Source: an uncultured Rickettsiales bacterium
GTDB taxonomy: Bacteria; Pseudomonadota; Alphaproteobacteria; Rickettsiales; UBA1997
DNA length: 64,000 nt
Direction of reading: 5' to 3'
Assembly: GCA_934747265.1 (NCBI GenBank)
Contig: CAKVGI010000001.1
Coordinates: 5,499-69,498, forward strand
The translations under genes were made by a program, and so were the position numbers. Of the stretch, positions 3,550-59,620 are shown in pieces. A model generated the notes under the pieces. It saw only the letters and a program-made list of their open reading frames with translations, was not told the DNA's origin and did not search any database. Within the stretch, counting starts at the first letter, position 1, and the number at the start of each line of letters is the position of its first letter.

Positions 3550-5073
<1,524 letters not shown>

Positions 5074-6014: not shown

Positions 6015-7991
6015 TTAAAAATAAGGAGTATGTGGGTAATGATAAGTGAACAGTGTGTTTATTAGTTCAATGTTCTTTTTAAATTGTTCATTAGCATTAT
6101 CTTCTATAAATTCATATCCTTTTATTTCATCTTCAAGTTCATTAATTCTTTTATTCAATCCTTCTATTGTCTTATGTGTTTCTTCAAGATTTTTTTCTAA
6201 ATTGGCTATTCTATTATCTTTTTGATATTTTTTTGCCATTCTATTTGCTAATGCACTGTCAATTCTTTGTTGCTTAATAGTTTCCCAACTACTAGTATCC
6301 ATATCAATATTTTCAACAATATCTTTAACTGTATTTAGTTCATCTTTTGCATATTTTATATTTAATTGTTCTTTAATTCCATATTTTAATTCATTTGCTT
6401 CTTTTTGTTTTTCTTGGTTTTTATATATCTCTTCAATTTTTTTGTCCATTTCAGCTTGTAGCTTACTATCTTTTATATTTTGATTTAAAACCTTTTCAGT
6501 AGCTAAATCAACAATATTTTCCTTTACTGCTTCGTTTTTGTTTTTCCAATCATCATATTTTACACCAAAACCATTTTTTGGCGTAGGTTTCATAATAAAA
6601 TTATCAAAATAACTTCTTACTTTTTCATTAAGTAAAGAATTACCGTCCAGTTTTACTCTTTGTCCTATATCTTTAAAACTACCATAAACAGACCTTAATA
6701 AAGTCTTAAAATTCTCAAATAAACCCTTTAAATCTTCCACAGGGGCTTTTCCTGTCCTTAAATAAGCTTCCCAATTTTCCGCAAAAAATTCCTGCTCTTC
6801 AATACCATTTCCTATCTTATCCTTATTGAATTCATTATATAGCGTAATATAGTCATTTAAATAATTTTTTGCTATAATACTTTCAGGTGCAATTTTTTTC
6901 AAACTACTTAAAAAGAAATGCCCCATCTCATGAATAAGTGTTGATGGATTACTTTTTTCAAATAATGTTATTATATTTGTTGTTGTATTATATTGCCCCA
7001 ATGGTTGATTATTAAATTCTTGGTTTAAATTATTGACATTTAAATCTTTATCGTTTATCATTGTAATGGGGTTGCTTGACCGCGGTGATATTGATTTATC
7101 GGCAGTGGCAACCCTTTTTATTTTAACTATTTGATCAGAATCATTATTCTTGACTTTTGTGTTAGGATTTTGTACAATTATTTTGGAACTGCCGTCTTGG
7201 ACGTATGGGCTGGGAGCTTTTAGAGCGTTTTGGTAATTTCCACCTTTATTAGTCGTATCGCCCCCAGTTCTTTTTCTATAAATGGTTTTGCTTTCTAAAA
7301 TATTTTTGTCATTTAAAACTTCTTCCACATAATATGTAATACCTTTTGAAATATTTTTAATATATTTTATAGATGGCAAACCTCTTTTTGTTTTGTTTCC
7401 TATTTCTATATAATCCGGATTATTTATAACATATGGTATATTTTTTATATCCTTATCGCTTACTGGTATTTGATTATTTTGTTGTTCCGTTTTTAAACCA
7501 TGTCTATTTTCTTTATGCTTCAAAAAATCAGTTGTTATTCTATGTTTTGTATTCTCATTAACATTTAATCCATTTTCTTTAAAAACCTTTAATTGCCAAT
7601 CTGTAATATTTCCTATATCTTTTCTATTATTTTCTCCATGTTTATAAGAATTTATTACTTCATTTATATTTTTTTCTATCTCTGGATTATTTTGATAAAA
7701 AATTTTAACTTCATTTTCTTCTGTTGATTTCACATTATTTGTTGCGAAATTTCCAATTATTTCATTGCCACCAACTGCCTTTACAACATTAGGCAATCCG
7801 CCCATTTTTTGTAATACATAACCAATAGTTTTATTATTGTGTATAGCTAAATTTTTTAATATTTGATTTGTTATATTAAGTATATCATCAACTTCTTGTT
7901 CTGTTTTGCCAGCCTCTAAACTCTGCTTTTTAAATTTATTATATTCTTCTTTTCTATAAGATTCCGCCAATTCAATTTGCTTTGTGTTCAA
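6015..7991 (-). CDS. Phage/conjugative-element polyvalent-type protein (PBECR-like nuclease region, HExxH zincin, coiled-coil tail); probably 5'-truncated
   Basis: HEMGH zincin motif (TLIHEMGHFF). The segment IPVSDKDIKNIPYVINNPDYIEIG...IKYIKNISKGITYYVEEVLNDKNILESKTIYRK resembles Barnase-EndoU-ColE5/D-RelE-like modules of polyvalent proteins. The frame stays open upstream to 8156 with no start codon. Confidence 0.55.
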   Translation of the reverse strand: MNTKQIELAESYRKEEYNKFKKQSLEAGKTEQEVDDILNITNQILKNLAIHNNKTIGYVLQKMGGLPNVVKAVGGNEIIGNFATNNVKSTEENEVKIFYQNNPEIEKNINEVINSYKHGENNRKDIGNITDWQLKVFKENGLNVNENTKHRITTDFLKHKENRHGLKTEQQNNQIPVSDKDIKNIPYVINNPDYIEIGNKTKRGLPSIKYIKNISKGITYYVEEVLNDKNILESKTIYRKRTGGDTTNKGGNYQNALKAPSPYVQDGSSKIIVQNPNTKVKNNDSDQIVKIKRVATADKSISPRSSNPITMINDKDLNVNNLNQEFNNQPLGQYNTTTNIITLFEKSNPSTLIHEMGHFFLSSLKKIAPESIIAKNYLNDYITLYNEFNKDKIGNGIEEQEFFAENWEAYLRTGKAPVEDLKGLFENFKTLLRSVYGSFKDIGQRVKLDGNSLLNEKVRSYFDNFIMKPTPKNGFGVKYDDWKNKNEAVKENIVDLATEKVLNQNIKDSKLQAEMDKKIEEIYKNQEKQKEANELKYGIKEQLNIKYAKDELNTVKDIVENIDMDTSSWETIKQQRIDSALANRMAKKYQKDNRIANLEKNLEETHKTIEGLNKRINELEDEIKGYEFIEDNANEQFKKNIELINTLFTYHYPHTPYF

Positions 7992-8749: not shown

Positions 8750-9739
8750 TCAATTTGATGAGTTTTTATTAACTTTATCTTTTGCTAGCGGATGAAGAGA
8801 ATTAACTATATTCTTTAATTTATCGTCAACAATATGTGTATAAATTTGAGTTGTAGAAATATCAGAATGCCCTAAAAGTTCCTGCAATATTCTTAAATCG
8901 GCGCCTCTATTAAGTAAATGTGTAGCAAAGGAATGTCTAATAATGTGTGGAGATATTTTATCAATATCAATACCGCAGTTTATAGCTAATTCTTTTAAGT
9001 TTAATGCAAAAATTTGTCTTGTTGTATGATTATCTTTTGTTTTATATTTAATTTTTGTGTCTTTTTTGATTTTTGAAAAGTTTACAAGAGTTGTCCATAA
9101 CCATTCTGAATGTTTGTTTTGCAATAATCTTTCTCTTAAATTAAGATATTTTATTAATATTTCTTTTGTTTTATTATTAATTGGTACAAGTCTTTCTTTG
9201 CTTCCTTTTCCTTTTATTATTAAATAATCGTCTATTGTATATAAACCATCTTTTCTATATTTTTTTTGGATATCACTAATTTTTAGTTCAACTAATTCAG
9301 AAACTCTCATGCCAGTAGCATATAACAATTCTAACATGCAATAAAATTGAATACCATAATTGCTAGAATCTTCTCTCGCTTTATTTAACAATAGATTAAC
9401 TTCTTCTTCTGATAAAAAAACTGGTAATTTTTCTTGCTTTTTTGGAAGTTCTAACAATTCTGCTGGATTGTTTTCTATAACATTTTCAAGTTGCAAAAAA
9501 ATAAAAAATTGCTTTAAAGATGAAATATTTCTTGATAAAGTAGATACAGATGAGCCTTTATTATATAAAAATTCAATGTATTTTTTTAAATCCATAAATA
9601 CAATTTTGTCTACATTATCCTTTTTTATAAAATTAAAAAAATTATGTAAATCATTTTTATATGACATAGCAGTATTGTTTGAATATCCTTTCTCAACAAT
9701 TAAATTATTTATAAAATTATCAATATTTTTTTTAATCAT
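8750..9739 (-). CDS. Tyrosine site-specific recombinase, XerC/XerD family
   Basis: N-terminal SAM-like domain (LIVEKGYSNNTAMSYKNDL). C-terminal catalytic motifs HIIRHSFATHLL and LLGHSDISTTQIYTH. Confidence 0.8.
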   Translation of the reverse strand: MIKKNIDNFINNLIVEKGYSNNTAMSYKNDLHNFFNFIKKDNVDKIVFMDLKKYIEFLYNKGSSVSTLSRNISSLKQFFIFLQLENVIENNPAELLELPKKQEKLPVFLSEEEVNLLLNKAREDSSNYGIQFYCMLELLYATGMRVSELVELKISDIQKKYRKDGLYTIDDYLIIKGKGSKERLVPINNKTKEILIKYLNLRERLLQNKHSEWLWTTLVNFSKIKKDTKIKYKTKDNHTTRQIFALNLKELAINCGIDIDKISPHIIRHSFATHLLNRGADLRILQELLGHSDISTTQIYTHIVDDKLKNIVNSLHPLAKDKVNKNSSN

Positions 9740-9861: not shown

Positions 9862-10563
9862 ATGACTGTTAATAATAAAAAAGGTTTTTCTTTAATTGAA
9901 TTATCTATTGTTTTAATTATAATTGGTCTTTTAGTTGCTGGTATTACAGGTGGTTCCAGTTTGATTAAAAGTGCTGAATTAAGAGCTGTAATGTCAGATA
10001 TTAGAAATTATCAAACAGCAGTTAACGCTTACTATACATCCAGAGGTGAGTTGCCTGGTACAGATGGTTCTTCTGAAATGGCATTTGGTGATTCTTGCAA
10101 TGCTTGGGCAGCTATGGTTAACGAAGGTATAGTTGATACTTATTTGACATCTTTCAGTAAAGATACAACAACAAATAAATATTCTTGTGCAGCTATGACA
10201 GCAGTTGGATCAGCAAATTCAGTTAGTTCAAAAATGAAAGGCGGTTTCTACGCATTAGGATATAATGATGAAATGTTGGCAAACGTTATTTTCTTAGTTG
10301 GTAAGGACCAAACAGCTGATGGAATGAAAGGGGCAACAGCAGGTTCAGATGCTAAATTAGGAACATCAGTTATTTCTAGAAAAGATGCAAAATTCTTAGA
10401 TGATAAGATGGATAATGGAATTTCTGATTCTGGTAAAATCTTTGCATTTACAGGAAGCAATACCGATGCTGCTGATGGTACAGGTTGTGTATATAGCAAC
10501 TCTGGTACAATAAGCAAAGAAACACAAAGAGATTGCGGTATTGCAATGTCAATTGGTTTATAA
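9862..10563 (+). CDS. Prepilin-type N-terminal cleavage/methylation domain protein (type IV pilin or pseudopilin)
   Basis: KKGFSLIELSIVLIIIGLLVAGI is a class III signal: G/F cleavage site, E at +5 and a hydrophobic helix. Shine-Dalgarno AAGGGTGA lies upstream. Confidence 0.8.
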   Translation: MTVNNKKGFSLIELSIVLIIIGLLVAGITGGSSLIKSAELRAVMSDIRNYQTAVNAYYTSRGELPGTDGSSEMAFGDSCNAWAAMVNEGIVDTYLTSFSKDTTTNKYSCAAMTAVGSANSVSSKMKGGFYALGYNDEMLANVIFLVGKDQTADGMKGATAGSDAKLGTSVISRKDAKFLDDKMDNGISDSGKIFAFTGSNTDAADGTGCVYSNSGTISKETQRDCGIAMSIGL

Positions 10564-10589
10564 TATTAAATTATTGTAATGTTATTAAA

Positions 10590-10623
10590 ATGAAGTACAT
10601 ATGTAATGTGTGCTTCATTTTTG
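10590..10623 (+). terminator. Putative intrinsic terminator after the pilin-like gene
   Basis: ATGAAGTACA / TGTGCTTCAT stem followed by TTTTTG. Confidence 0.5.
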
Positions 10624-10899
10624 TTAAGATATTTATATTAGATATTTCTTCATTAATTATATTATAATATATCATTTTTATTATCTTCAATTTCTACCAG
10701 ATAAGACTTTTAACTTTTTTAATACTAATTACGCTAGAAAATTTAAGTTTCTCTTTATTGCATTTTATATTCTTTTACTTTGCTAACATTACTTATTTAA
10801 TCTTTAAAATTAAACCTTTTTTTCCTTATACTAAGTTTTTGTATTAATAATAAAAGAAAAATCATTTTTTAAAAATCATAAAAATTGATACGAAATATT

Positions 10900-11975
10900 C
10901 CTTGCTCTATTTTGTAAAGGAAACTAATGAAATTATTCTTCCGTTCCTTTTTATAATTGAAAAGCTGACGCAGTTAATGCTCTATAATCTTTGTCTCCTT
11001 TTATAATGGAAAAGTTGATGTGAATATTCTAAATTTATCTCCTTTTCTAAGGATAGAGTTAGTCGTAGAACATTCCACCTTGCCCACATTCATAAGGGTG
11101 GAGCTAACACAGAACCCCCCCTTACCCCCCTTATCAGGTGGGAAAATGAAGGAGCCTTATCAGGGTGGAATTAGTGTATATCCCTCTTATCAGGTGGATG
11201 GATTGAGGGGCAGTCCACATTTGTAAGGTGGAACTGATGTGAAATATTTCCCTTTCTGCCCCCCATTTTGTAAAGGAGGAACTGGCTTAGTCAATACTTC
11301 ATCTCCGCCCCCCTTCGTAAGGGGGGAGTCAGTCATAGACTGACAGGGGGTTGAGAACATTTATTTGTTTTACAAAAAACAAATAAATAATTGAAAATTA
11401 AAAATTGAAAATTGGAAATAAATATAAAGTTAAAGAGCTTGTATTTTAAATTTAAAACTAAAATTAAGAATTATAATAATAATTAAAATTTGGATTAAAG
11501 ATTAAAAAATATAAAGTTAAGAATTTAGAATTAAAAATGTCAAATTAAATATCTCAAATTTAAAATATTAATTAATAATTAAGAATAATGACAATATACT
11601 ATATATCAGACAATAACTATTATATAAAAATATAATTAATTAATAATTTTATAAGAATTATAAAATAATAAAATAATATATTAATATAAAAAACATAGCT
11701 TAAATATAATCAAAGTATTCTAAACCCCCCTTACCCCCCTTATCAGGGGGGAATGAGAGGAACTTATCAGGGGGGTGAGGAGAGACCTTATCAGAGGAAT
11801 GGAATGAAGGGGCCTTATCAGGTGGGTAAGAGAACCTTATCATGGGGATGAGAGGGCCTTATCAGGTGGGATGGGGTATATACTTATCATGGGAGATAGA
11901 GGGTATTCCTTATCAGGGAAAAATAGAAGAGTATATCTTAGCAGTGAGGGGGTGGAGTGTACACTTATCATAGGG
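10900..11975 (+). repeat. Type-1 mosaic intergenic element, copy A (largest copy, nested)
   Basis: Left array of about 45-bp units (TTNTAAGGGGGGAGCTGA-type) at 10900-11349. AT-rich core at 11350-11722. Right array of about 22-bp CCTTATCAGGGG units at 11723-11975. Confidence 0.85.
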
Positions 11976-12199
11976 AATGTTATATATGGCCTAAAATCAA
12001 AGAGTGGATTTAGCAAAAAAAATAATAAAATATCTACAACTTATATATTTATTAGTATTTTCTGTAATTCCATCCTCAAATACTAAAATGTATTTGGGAC
12101 TAATTCCATAATATTTAATTAAAAATAAGTAAACAAAAGACAAGATATTAGTTCTAAATGAATTAAATAATTTTGATATAAGTGATTGCTAAAACAAAA

Positions 12200-12233
12200 T
12201 AAAAAACTAAGCTAGTGTAAAACCAGCTTAGTT
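12200..12233 (-). terminator. Putative intrinsic terminator of rpsP
   Basis: On the minus strand, an AACTAAGCT / AGCTTAGTT stem followed by a T-run. Confidence 0.5.
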
Positions 12234-12242
12234 GTGTAAATA

Positions 12243-12596
12243 TTAAGCATTTTCAGTTGTTGTTTCTGCTTGCGCATTTTCAACTTTTGATTCTTCCTTT
12301 TTTGCTTTTTCTTTTGGAACAAATACTGGTTTATATTTTTCGGCGCCTTTTACACCAGCTTTAATTAAAAGCAAAGCAGCTCTATCTGTTGGTAATGCAC
12401 CAACGCTTAACCAATATTCTGCTCTATCTTTTTTGATAACTAATTTTTCAGAATTATCATCGTTTAATAATGGATTATATGTTCCGATTTTTTCTAAAAA
12501 TTTACTATCTCTTCTATTTCTAGAATCAGTAGCTACAATATGATAAAAAGGAACTTTATTCCTTCCAAATCTTGCCAATCTAATCTTTACAGCCAT
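12243..12596 (-). CDS. rpsP: 30S ribosomal protein S16
   Basis: [42 protein letters not shown] is the canonical S16 N-terminus. Confidence 0.95.
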
Positions 12597-20932: not shown

Positions 20933-20967
20933 ATGAGGTATTTCTAATTTCTGATTAGACTATTTCT

Positions 20968-21500
20968 CACCCCCCCTTTTTTTTGTAACGTAAGAGATGA
21001 TGTATTCAATACCTTCTTTTTACTCTCCCACCTTATCTACATTCATAGGGGTGGAGCTGACACAGAAACACCCCTTGCCCCCCTTATCAGGGGGGGATGA
21101 GCGGTAGCCCCCTTTGTAGGAGGGTTAGTCTCAGAACACCTTCCCTCCGCCCCCCTTTGTAAGGGGGGAGCTGATGTAGTCAGCAGGGGGGTTGATAGCT
21201 ATTTATTTGTTTTATTATAAAAAAAATAAATAATTAAAAATTGAAAATTAAAATAAAATATAAAGTCGAGGATTTGAATTTAAGATTTAAAATTAAGAAT
21301 TAAGAATTAAGAATAATACTATATATTAAACAGTAATTATTATTATATAAAGTATATAATTAATAATTTTATAAGAATTATAAAATAATAAAATAATATA
21401 TTAATATAAAAAACAAAGTATAAAACAATTAAAGTATTTTAACCCCCCTTACCCAACTTATCAGGGGGAGATTGAGGTAGTACCTCTTATTATGGAATAG
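20968..21500 (+). repeat. Type-1 mosaic intergenic element, copy B
   Basis: Left array 20968-21197, core 21198-21440, short right array 21441-21500. Confidence 0.85.
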
Positions 21501-21622
21501 ATATTTTTTGCATTGATAAGACCGGATATTAAAATTAGAGCAATACCTAGAAGTATTAAAACAAAATCCTTGATTTATTTTTTTATTCTTTTATTATTAT
21601 TAAATAATTTGTAATATATTGT

Positions 21623-36339: not shown

Positions 36340-37040
36340 CTCCTTTCACCACCACCGCTAAGTATATTATCTATCCTCCCATGATAAGAGGTATTCTATT
36401 ACCCATAATAAAGTCTCCTCATTCTCCATGATAAGACCCCTTCATTCCCTCCCTGCTAAGATATACTCTTCTATTTTTCCCTGATAAGGGGCACCTATCC
36501 AATTCCCCCCTGATAAGGGGGGTAAGGGGGGTTTAAAATACTTTGATTATATTAAGTTTTGTTTTATATTATTTTATAATTCTTAATTCTTAATTCTTAA
36601 TTTTAAATCCTCGACTTTAATTTTATTTTCAATTTTTAATTTTCAATTATCCATTTGTTTTATAATAAAACAAAATAAATGCTATCAACCACCCCCCTGT
36701 CAGTCTATGACTGACTCCCAACTTACTAAGGGGGACAGGAAGAGGATGTTTTCTCTTACAAGGGGGGCGAGGATTGGATATATTGACTGCGACTGACTCC
36801 CCCCTTACGAAGGATGGCTACTACTCATTCCCCCCTGATAAGGGGGGCAAGGGGGGTTTTGTGTCAGCTCCCCCCTTACAAAGGATGGCAAGGATAGGAT
36901 ATATTGACTGCGACCGACTCCATCCTTATAAAGGGAGGCGGAGGAGAGAGGTATTGACTACGTTGGATTTCCCATTACAAATGTGGGCGAGGAGGAAAGT
37001 ATTTTACAACAGCCTTCTTACAAAAGGTGATAAAATATTT
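36340..37040 (-). repeat. Type-1 mosaic intergenic element, copy C (inverted, core internally deleted)
   Basis: Reverse complement of the family. CCCCCCTGATAAGGGGGGTAAGGGGGGTTT at 36506-36535. The core is only about 150 bp. Confidence 0.85.
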
Positions 37041-42859: not shown

Positions 42860-43340
42860 CTTCACCTACCGTTAGAAAATACCAATTTTTGCTCCACTGC
42901 TAATGATAGGTATCTTTTACCCTCTATTAAGAGAAACTTTTTAATCCCTTAATAAGAACATACATTCTTACCTGTTAAGGGGATACTCCTCAATACCCCT
43001 GCCAAGAAGGTACTCATCTAATATCCCCTGTTAAAAGTAGTAAAAGTGGGGGGCGAATATTTGATTATATTAGATTACAATTATTTATATAAATAATATT
43101 TTTAATGTGTAATATATTTATTATTCTTAATTCTAAATCCAAACCCTGCAAATTTATATTTTATTTTCAATTTTTAATTATTTATTTTATTATAAATTAA
43201 ATAAATGCTATCAATCATCACTGCTGACTACGTTAGCTCCACCATATAAAAGGGACAAAGAAGTCAACGTATCAAATAAATAGATTAATATATACGTCAA
43301 CTCCTACCATATAAGAGGGACAAAGAAGGAGATGCTAACT
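42860..43340 (-). repeat. Type-1 mosaic intergenic element, copy D (inverted, heavily decayed)
   Basis: Recognisable core (AAATAAATGCTATCAATCATCACTGCTGACTACGTTAGC; TTCAATTTTTAATTA) with AT-eroded arms. Confidence 0.65.
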
Positions 43341-45797: not shown

Positions 45798-45914
45798 AAA
45801 TAATAATTTATTATATACAACTATAAGTATAATAATTATTTAAAAAATCAAGAAAAAAATTATTACAATTAATTATGTATATATAAAAATATTGCAGTAG
45901 TGATAAAAAATAAA

Positions 45915-46575
45915 GTCCCTTTAATTCCTTTTATCATTTTTGCGGAGTTAGTTGCGAAATACCTCTTCTCCGCCTTCTCATTGTAAAGTAATAAGCTAGC
46001 GTATGAATACTTTCCCTTTCGTTATCCTCTGTGAGAAAAAGCTGATGTAGAACGCTCCCCTTGCTACCTTCGTAAGGAAGGGAGTTGACACTAAAACCCC
46101 CCTTACCCCCCTTATCAGGGGGGAATGAGTAGTAGCTATCCTTTGTAAGGGGGGAGCTGACGTAGTCAGCAGGGGGGTGATAGTATTTATTTTGTTTTAT
46201 TATAAAATAAAACAAAATAAATAATTGAAAATTGAAAATAAATATAAAGTTGAAGAGCTTAAATTCAAGATTTAAAATTAAGAATTAAGAATTAAGAATT
46301 AAGAATAATACTATATATTAAACAGTAATTATTATTATATAAAGTATATAATTAATAATTTTATAAGAATTATAAAATAATATATTAACATAAAAAAAGA
46401 ATTTAAATATAATTAAAGTATTTAAACCCCCCTTACCCCCCTTATCAGGGGGGAATTGAATAGGTGCCCCTTATCAGGGGAGAATAGAGATTATTATTCT
46501 TACATGATGGAATGAAATAAAGTAGCAGGAGGCAGAGAGAGGCATCTTAATACAGTAGTAGGAATATAACTTAAC
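45915..46575 (+). repeat. Type-1 mosaic intergenic element, copy E (best preserved)
   Basis: Left array 45915-46182, core 46183-46423, right array 46424-46575. A 33-nt perfect direct repeat is at 46094-46126 and 46424-46456. Confidence 0.88.
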
Positions 46576-46813
46576 GGAAAAATAAAGTTTATTGAAGGAA
46601 AAATAAAAGTATAGATATAGGTTAAGATGTAATTTACATTTATTATTTAATAAACCATATTATAGAATATGAAAAAAGCAGAAAATGTAAAGAAAGAGAA
46701 AATTGTAAATGGAGATAAATTAATTATTATTAATACTATTTATTTTATAAAAATTCTTGTTTTTTAAAGATTAATTGGTTAATATTCTTTTGAGTTAATA
46801 TAATTATATTTGT

Positions 46814-49410: not shown

Positions 49411-52158
<2,748 letters not shown>

Positions 52159-52265
52159 GGATAATGTATATAAAGTAAAACTATATATAGTATTAAATCT
52201 ATATTTTACGGGTATAAATTGTACTAATATTAATGAGCATTTAAAGACTTTACCGTCCTTAAATA

Positions 52266-52380
52266 GCTTGGTAATCATAATGATGTGGAACCACTCGATA
52301 CATTCCGAACTCGCCAGTGAAACGCAAATCATGCCGATTGTACTATGGCTCTGTCATGGGAGATTAGGTTATTGCCAAGC
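52266..52380 (+). rRNA. rrf: 5S ribosomal RNA
   Basis: Helix I GCTTGGTAAT / ATTGCCAAGC. Conserved CCGAACTC, GTGAAAC and GGGAGA. Confidence 0.9.
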
Positions 52381-59079: not shown

Positions 59080-59620
59080 TGCTTTAAAGCTGACGTGAAG
59101 TACCTCCTACTTATTGCCACCACTTCATAAGTGGGTTGATGGCATTTATTTGTTTTATTATAAAACAAATGAATAATTGAAAATTGAAAATAAAATATAA
59201 AGTCGGATATTTGAATTTAAGATTTAAAATTAAGAATTAAGAATTAAGAATAATACTATATATTAAACAGTAATTATTATTATATAAAGTATATAATTAA
59301 TAATTTTATAAGAATTATAAAATAATACATTAATATAAAAAACAAAGCTTAAATATAATCAAAGTATTTTAAACCCCCCTTGCCCCCCTTATCAGGGGGG
59401 AATGGAGAGTATCCTTATCGTGGGGAGGAGACCTTATCATTGGAGGATAAGGAACTTATCAGGGGGAGAGTATTCTTGTTATGTGAGATAGAGGAGTATC
59501 TCTTAACAAAGGGGATAGATAGAATATCCTTTTACTAGGGGAATAAAAGGGTATCCACTTAGCGGGAGGATAGGAAGTAGTACCTTCCTAGCAGAGGGGA
59601 CGAAAGAGAACTTAGCATAA
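59080..59620 (+). repeat. Type-1 mosaic intergenic element, copy F (left array almost absent)
   Basis: Core 59141-59372. Right array of about 10 decaying CCTTATCAGGGG units at 59373-59620. Confidence 0.85.

Follow-up and report, generated by a model that had tools for sequence, protein, structure and literature searches.

Arms of a MITE-like non-coding repeat in an AT-rich bacterium probably consist of stacked relics of its own ends

What kind of element places a conserved AT-rich core between two arrays of short GC-rich hairpin units, and do these arrays keep the order in which their units arose? The question is raised by the repeat that we call copy A, at positions 10910 to 11979 of the window, which is the whole stretch of 64,000 nucleotides analysed here (C1:5499-69498 of a 1.11-Mb, 27% G+C, 29-contig assembly labelled Rickettsiales). 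The initial annotation had proposed that new units are created beside the core while older ones are pushed outward and mutate toward A+T, with gene conversion that falls off with distance as the alternative. The PNPase of this genome is 86% identical to those of two MAGs named "uncultured Rickettsiales bacterium", and the strain contigs that carry related loci, which are retrieved via exact matches to the proteins flanking each element, come mostly from gut metagenomes, whose assemblies can be chimeric at repeats. Copy A is one of roughly 70 copies of a non-coding selfish repeat in this AT-rich bacterium. The explanation that we consider probable is that the repeat is MITE-like, that its arms are stacks of relic copies of its ends to which new units are added at the ends, and that a DUF559 nuclease is the likely driver; the copy A region itself would then be a tandem pair, made of an old core-less relic and a core-bearing copy.

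All parts of copy A are described on the plus strand. The outer left array (10910 to 11114) holds five strongly decayed left-type units (TTTGTAAAGG..., TTATAATTGAAAAGCTGACG..., ... CATTCATAAGGGTGGAGCTAACACAGAA), of which those at 10910, 10948, 10999 and 11043 are very decayed, and the decay runs away from position 11115, not from the present core. An embedded right-type block follows (11115 to 11215), with a relic right end (CCCCCCCTTACCCCCCTTATCAGGTGGG) and two more right units. The initial annotation saw this block as nested inside the left array. The outer left array, however, is 98% shared with a core-less allele in strain L122, where the same block has a perfect CCCCCCTTATCAGGGGGG, forms the centre and joins its own right arm directly, with no core between. 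The better reading of the block is therefore that it was the centre of an older element without a core. The same junction of left unit, ACAGAAA and right end recurs in copies B, C and D and elsewhere, and a piece of about 310 nt (window 10920-11228), with most of the outer left array and the embedded block, is missing in L124, L127 and L128. Two moderately decayed inner left units (CACATTTGTAAGGTGGAACTGATG..., ATTTTGTAAAGGAGGAACTGGCTTAGTCA...) occupy 11216 to 11307, with orthologues 88-90% identical in L124, L127 and L128. The left terminal repeat (11308 to 11358) contains a perfect hairpin CCCCCCTTCGTAAGGGGGG, a second hairpin GTCAGTCATAGACTGAC and then AGGGGGTTGAGAAC. The AT-rich core (11359 to 11721) begins with the palindrome ATTTATTTGTTTTA...TAAAACAAATAAAT; it contains no ORF, and an Rfam search of the element gives one sub-threshold chance match. 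The right terminal repeat (11722 to 11751) is the 30-mer AAACCCCCCTTACCCCCCTTATCAGGGGGG, read as C block, linker, C block, loop and G block, and the right array (11752 to 11979) adds nine further units of about 22-29 nt, each composed of CTTATCAGGGG and a purine-rich spacer, with G lost outward. By hand count, the ten units of the right arm (11722-11979) match CTTATCAGGGGGG at 13, 13, 10, 12, 11, 12, 11, 10, 10 and 10 of 13 positions.

The other copies in the window share this layout: copy B (20960-21500, plus strand, with a short right arm), copy C (36350-37040, minus strand, with three right-arm alleles among the strains), copy D (45930-46560, plus strand) and copy E (59090-59620, plus strand, with an almost absent left arm and a long decaying right arm). 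The hairpin motif has 17 matches in the window against 0.35 expected. Across the genome the core falls into 73 BLAST clusters at 67-100% identity, many of them at contig ends, and nearly all the genomic copies have the same layout, in which unit 1 beside the core is a perfect hairpin. Near its right end the core matches the consensus with a per-column identity of about 0.8-0.88, and identity is lower outside the core and ends. The conserved module is the left end hairpin or hairpins, the AT-rich core and the right end 30-mer, and the arms lie outside it. The right-end 30-mer contains the 27-mer CCCCCCTTRCCCCCCTTATCAGGGGGG, of which this genome has 43 copies and none of 400 other Pseudomonadota genomes has any; a search of 40 relatives for the end motif gives none or a one-mismatch variant only, and viral contigs have no copy. 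Orthologous empty sites in the two nearest named relatives are not usable, with synteny around pnp extending only about 2.9 kb. At 43084-43205 lies another core copy, incomplete and diverged (75% identity over 127 nt), and the hairpin units around it are weak.

The right end is a 30-mer, AAACCCCCCTTRCCCCCCTTATCAGGGGGG, that combines a hairpin with a third block in a BoxC/PIT-type motif. The last left hairpin in many copies is CCCCCCTGATAAGGGGGG, followed by a second hairpin (GCTGAC-GTAG-TCAGC) and then AGGGGGGTTGA. In copies other than A the left hairpin can have a TGATAA loop, and a left end of this form is the right end TAAACCCCCCTTRCCCCCCTTATCAGGGGGG in exact inversion, so that the module is bounded by inverted ends; some copies have a TTYGTAA loop in the left hairpin instead. 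In the left orientation the end reads CCCCCC-TGATAA-GGGGGG-YAA-GGGGGG-TTT, that is, a block of pyrimidines, a loop and the complementary purines, then, after a linker, another block of purines. The right units repeat with a period of about 26-27 nt and the left units with about 47 nt, because the left end carries the second hairpin. The arm units are relic copies of the element's own terminal repeats. Their length ranges from 19 to 62 nt, and their spacers are purine-rich variants of one another, with a mean identity of about 0.5 even between arrays. The possibility that each right unit contains the decayed outer half of a long palindrome (YAAGGGGGGTTT) finds no support among the intergenic copies, where the spacers score 2.0 against 2.3 for shuffled ones, and fold-back resynthesis is for this reason kept as speculation only.

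The BoxC/PIT triplex-hairpin repeats go back in the literature to the 1990s, and to our knowledge neither their origin nor a partner enzyme nor the way in which they spread has been described. Judged by its letters, the end motif is a putative intrastrand-triplex sequence of the BoxC/PIT/TM kind. The part of Holder et al. 2015 (PMC4666352) drawn on here gives the TMECO sequences as CCCTCGCCCC-TTT-GGGGAGAGGG-TTA-GGGTGAGGGG, and the BoxC/PIT/TM repeats of E. coli and other bacteria described there have the same block architecture as the element's end, with a 3-nt linker. Both kinds of repeat are dispersed, intergenic and sometimes arranged as inverted pairs; following the same part of that paper, loci with BoxC/PIT/TM are more rearranged between strains, as are the loci of the present elements. 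There are differences as well: the present blocks are pure C6/G6, the motif forms the inverted end of both an AT-rich module of about 0.4 kb and a DUF559 gene, and it runs on into long arrays of relic units in decay. For BoxC/PIT/TM, that part of PMC4666352 mentions no partner enzyme and no decaying arrays.

How general is the outward decay? Every unit sequence quoted in the initial annotation is present at its place, and the stepwise erosion of right units that it described in copy A extends over the genome. We survey 41 right arms, anchored on the AT-rich core, with unit 1 as the anchor and a unit detection floor of 8/13. The mean match to CTTATCAGGGGGG is 12.7 at unit 1, then 11.4, 11.2 and 10.4, and stays at about 10 of 13 thereafter, while perfect units at positions 1 to 4 number 31/41, 7/39, 8/36 and 0/35. 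Identity is negatively correlated with distance from the core (Spearman rho = -0.56, or -0.38 without unit 1), and the sign is negative in all 31 right arms with at least five units, as it is in 29/29 testable arms when unit 1 is removed. Because the copies are related and unit 1 is the anchor, p-values for the gradient overstate independence, and the per-arm sign test is the fairer figure. A threshold-free profile of the right arms reads 12.8, 10.5, 10.5, 9.3, 9.0 and so on to a background of 5.9 over about 250 nt, along which G+C falls from 0.52 to 0.25; the arms fade into the background and have no sharp outer edge. The decay is at G positions, G to A or T, and the A/T positions of the loop hold. 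The left arm had been described as a mirror of the right. Its innermost unit is indeed perfect and its outer units degenerate, but the match goes from 17.8/19 at unit 1 to 14.6 at unit 2 and to a plateau near 13.7, with a rho of -0.21 without unit 1 in a left-arm list that held some duplicated anchors. The left arms are mainly a step, one perfect unit and the rest degenerate, more than a slope.

Does position along an arm follow age? In the strain comparisons (four intergenic loci and recG), the outermost units are common, and the number and content of units change between unit 1 and the outermost; the units of an arm are in this sense ordered by age. The right arm of copy A has 10 units in four assemblies and is identical in L090, L092 and L098. 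In L094, L096 and L099 it has 4 units, of which only the outermost one or two, in diverged form, are shared with the window. At copy C, one strain has the same units as the window with more G, and in two others about seven different units stand between a retained unit 1, spacer included, and the retained outermost pair. In the outer units of copy C the window has T where the two other alleles agree on G, a change of G to T in place in the window lineage that agrees with the proposed mutation toward A+T. At copy D, strain L116 has about five extra inner units, and unit 2 of the window resembles the joint of units 2 and 7 of the L116 allele, by which the window allele would be a deletion. Unit content thus differs between orthologous copies of close strains, at 2-5% divergence, and is not identical. 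The larger changes are of several kinds. Core-less alleles with the left arm joined directly to the right end and right arm are found in L096 (at copy A), L122 and L127; L131 and L134 have a left arm only at the site of copy B; L115 has different flanks and is not a clean empty site. L123 has a window-like left arm, core and right units 1-7, followed by other distal units, and L101 has middle units for which the window's genome offers no close match elsewhere. In L092 the right arm of copy A follows on the left arm and core of contig C3, as a recombinant or an assembly chimera.

A second view of the ends is provided by recG. The genome's only DUF559 (Vsr-fold) domain, at C14:18703-19020, aligns with the DUF559 structure of PDB 3hrl. 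Its gene is bracketed by inverted right-type ends, each followed by about five units that decay outward, and the whole insert lies in frame inside recG, with the frame open over 1001 codons. In six strains and three further species no stop codon interrupts the frame across the cassette and the two arms, and the units at this locus measure 27 nt, or 9 residues. Six strain variants of RecG::DUF559 have 947-998 residues, and an allele without the cassette (P0009, 737 residues) retains only the outermost relic units. On the DNA level every allele, the cassette-less one included, has the outermost right unit; the outer three right units are present in three strains, and 1, 2 or 3 units lie between the shared outer units and the end. 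The spacer AAGTGAGGATAT belongs to unit 1 in three strains and to unit 3 in P0005. P0005 and its sister P0006 are separated by 2.5%, compared with 3.5-5.3% from the others; on this basis it is more parsimonious that two units were gained beside the end than that two deletions took place independently. The new units of P0005 are G-richer than their old neighbour, and hence are not plain copies of it. The left arms of our genome's own recG and of P0004, which are 1.7% apart outside the cassette, do not look orthologous, and this points to replacement rather than stepwise growth.

In P0008, from a related species, two DNA-identical 27-mers adjoin the end and about 24 progressively decayed units lie beyond. 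Across 26 bins its right-arm motif match drops from 13, 13, 13, 12, 11 to a background near 6 (rho -0.85), the left arm declines outward likewise (rho -0.78), and G+C falls outward from 0.70 to 0.30; the decay is measured by motif match, as strict 27-nt ungapped phasing breaks after unit 3 through small shifts. The end has another loop here, CACA, a variant of that species' own which every unit of P0008 carries, from which it follows that the arm was built locally from its own end. Taken together, the gradient, the shared outer units, the decay in place and the identical proximal units of P0008 support a polar, inside-out ageing of the arms.

The complete in-frame cassette in recG of our genome lies at C14:17410-20406, outside the window, and the corresponding proteins are P0001-P0011, P0034, P0049 and P0051, of which P0011 has two cassettes in one RecG protein. 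RecG::DUF559 fusions are also seen in other Rickettsiales, in Flavobacteriia (Polaribacter, Tenacibaculum) and in other phyla, with two fusion sites in the helicase core, one before the LLTG motif and one between DEQH and MTATPIPR. The exact 30-mer pattern, with a G variant at the R position, is found on four unrelated GC-rich metagenome contigs, and in 2/4 of them a DUF559 ORF contains it in its 5' part, with decayed and inverted copies following. On contig WASV01192799.1 (333-362), the exact 30-mer sits within a seemingly continuous coding region of a GC-rich organism and may be another in-frame copy.

With this information, a route for the growth of the arms can be proposed. The terminal unit would duplicate in tandem, so that new units appear at the terminal repeat, and older units would be displaced outward; once mismatched to the intact end, these would take no further part and would decay under the G/C-to-A/T mutation pressure of the genome. 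Recombination between units may delete inner units, and exchange between copies may swap inner parts, in consequence of which turnover would concentrate near the centre. The DUF559 nuclease is the likely driver of this turnover, as we infer from its gene being flanked by the same ends: it would cut or nick intact end hairpins, and out-of-register repair or slippage among similar inner units would then add, refresh or remove units. We know of no DUF559 protein that is a transposase, and of no DUF559 activity on these hairpins. A search of the whole genome for a Y1 transposase (RAYT, PF01797) gives no match, whereas control genomes are matched. The Vsr/DUF559 group includes a homing endonuclease (PMC3424549), and in one survey DUF559 genes are enriched among inverted-repeat-flanked targets (PMC9881135). 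A bolder and rather doubtful extension is that DUF559 genes with triplex-hairpin ends form an undescribed class of selfish elements whose ends accrete, in which each round of nuclease-triggered repair would make a new end and leave the old one outside. If so, the arms would be a tree-ring record of activity that can be read even in the translated recG, where each ring would be exactly 27 nt or 9 residues.

Growth of the arms is not strictly polar, and here the proposal of new units beside the core has to be qualified: the outermost units and the flank are shared and the inner units vary (right arms of A, C and D; recG), but there are also the deletion joint of copy D, an internal 78-nt block by which two paralogous arms differ, the distal indel of 310 nt, the core-less alleles and exchange between copies. 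For any single event the direction is ambiguous, as the loss of a stretch between two hairpins would look no different from a proximal gain. In the intergenic copies, near-identical neighbouring spacers are found at 8/71 junctions at positions 1-3 and at 7/161 further out (Fisher p = 0.08, marginal). Paired growth of the two arms is argued against by the unit counts (copy E with almost no left and about 8 right units; P0005 with 1 left and 7 right).

Could exchange between copies produce the gradient without any polar addition? Conversion or crossover that starts in the core and ends and runs outward to a variable extent would do so: inner units would stay fresh and similar, outer ones would escape it and decay, and unit number would be altered only through misaligned exchange. 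The arms are indeed mosaics. Units 8-9 of copy A are near-identical to units 2-3 of copy C, and of the blocks shared between arms 17/29 are shifted relative to the core, which either proximal gain or loss in one partner or unequal exchange would produce. The switch of L123 to other units after right unit 7, the change of gene neighbours between strains exactly at elements (at rpsP and at the pilin-like and hexapeptide-repeat genes) and the per-column identity, high in the core and ends and dropping outside, also fit conversion. However, the cassette in recG of P0008 is single-copy, and with its own loop throughout the arm and two identical inner 27-mers it is better explained by local duplication than by import; the middle units of L101, without a close match elsewhere in the genome, also speak against conversion alone. 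The alternative in the initial annotation is to this extent right that conversion contributes, as the blocks shared by copies A and C and the L123 switch indicate, although it is not cleanly separable from local addition. As the sole cause of the gradient we consider it unlikely.

A less probable account, to which we give little weight, takes the arms as footprints of re-invasion: the element preferentially inserts into or beside its own hairpins, loss of the core leaves the ends behind, and the arms are the remains of nested insertions. The core-less alleles (L096, L122, L127), the left-arm-only allele (L131/L134), the right-type blocks embedded in the left arms of many copies and the two gradients of copy A toward two different centres are what it would leave, and two unrelated IS elements are seen to insert in these hairpins too. 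It leaves unexplained, however, why the arms are so unequal (copy E and P0005, as above), and no target-site duplication is found; furthermore, the identical tandem 27-mers of P0008 resemble duplication and not insertion. Finally, a static or functional array, that is, a fixed part of a master element or a selected series of graded protein-binding sites with no history in its gradient, can be set aside as very improbable, since for all that some multi-unit blocks are common to several copies and the unit spacing of about 26 nt resembles that of iterons, orthologous arms differ in unit number and content between strains 2-5% apart, the outer units change from G to A/T as expected without constraint, and the arms have no sharp outer edge.

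The probable reading, a MITE-like repeat with accumulating relic ends, can be set beside other known systems. With respect to what defines a MITE, copies with TGATAA loops have exact inverted ends that are common to the DUF559 gene, and the core has neither an ORF nor an Rfam match; target-site duplications of the MITE type are not seen, and alleles without a core retain relic arms. REP/BIME and REPIN-RAYT repeats are, like the present one, short GC-rich palindromes in high copy that cluster between genes, and in REPIN-RAYT, as here, these palindromes also stand, inverted, on both sides of a nuclease-type gene that is present once. In contrast to REPIN-RAYT, however, the present candidate partner has the PD-(D/E)xK Vsr fold in a genome free of Y1 transposase matches, and in contrast to REP/BIME the units form direct tandem arrays with an age gradient instead of alternating in orientation. 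GTAG is present here as the loop of the second left hairpin, and the right-type hairpin has neither a GTAG nor a CGTC tag. A CRISPR array is rejected, as the repeats degrade along the array, the spacers are purine-rich variants of each other and the unit length varies over 19-62 nt.

The Rickettsia palindromic elements, which Ogata and colleagues are said to have described in 2000 and which are reviewed in PMC10969869, are reportedly selfish palindromic repeats of Rickettsiales that can sit in frame in protein genes and be translated. The in-frame insertion in recG (six strains, three further species) is a feature of this sort. As far as a comparison by description goes, those elements are single units of about 100-150 nt without a known enzyme, whereas here a whole nuclease gene and arrays of 9-residue units are read through in RecG. 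The BOX elements of Streptococcus pneumoniae (boxA-boxB(n)-boxC) are modular non-coding repeats with variable tandem internal units; in contrast to the present arms, the variable units of BOX are internal and not ordered by decay, and we know of no nuclease partner for them. Centromeric satellites expand in layers, with a young homogeneous centre surrounded by progressively older, diverged layers, and in the very AT-rich mitochondrial DNA of yeast, mobile G+C clusters and ori elements place GC hairpin clusters at the flanks of AT-rich stretches. The likeness to both is formal only; organisms, scales and machinery differ, and no homology is implied.

What follows for the repeat and for the chromosome? 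Here a proliferating non-coding element and a DUF559 cassette both have a motif of the BoxC/PIT kind as their inverted ends, each end trailing its own older copies in order, and DUF559 is thereby a testable candidate enzyme for an orphan repeat family. As position in the arm tracks age, the arms offer an internal clock of repeat turnover in a bacterium, and the recG copy indicates that such arrays can grow, 9 residues at a time, within a presumably working protein. Among the element sites, which are the ones scored, rpsP, the pilin-like gene, trxB and the hexapeptide-repeat gene have different neighbours in different strains, with the switch falling exactly at the element; the elements therefore mark rearrangement breakpoints, and they would explain why these loci are sites of chromosome reshuffling between strains. 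The changes of neighbour are seen at window 10564-12243, 20933-21622 and 45798-46813 and at the strain loci L090-L135: across strains rpsP is next to the pilin-like gene, EF-Tu or others, and the gene beside the pilin-like one is rpsP, pantothenate kinase or transketolase.

The hairpins also receive other elements. An IS1-like element (end ...GTGAACAGTGTG) has several sites, where it lies at the edge of a C run or inside the hairpin (in L124 it follows ...TTATCAGG), and a second IS (end GATTGTGAATTTTAACTTGAAGT) lies in the hairpin loop in two strains. The sites are at the contig ends C2, C12, C15 and C19 and at the loci L094, L099, L124 and L128, and also L117 and L133. As these are two unrelated IS, the hairpins are insertion hot spots.

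A number of right arms are located directly upstream of genes that are paralogous to one another, encode a type IV pilin-like N-terminal methylation motif and share a promoter-like leader (C2:15796, C2:28891, C2:31744, C6:40040, C18:111 and C22:11123; window 9862-10563). This association may reflect segmental duplication or a regulatory link. Farther from the repeats, the RNA families of the Rfam type in the window are rRNA and tRNA only, and ARAGORN gives one tRNA gene only within the 64 kb. The 16S gene (3550-5072) is about 44 kb from the 23S-5S genes (49411-52380), a separation that is the Rickettsiales arrangement. On the minus strand, a 658-residue protein with a PBECR3 nuclease domain is encoded at 6015-7991, and a XerC/D-like tyrosine recombinase at 8750-9739, about 760 nt from it; strain L122 has a Mur ligase gene in place of the PBECR3 gene.
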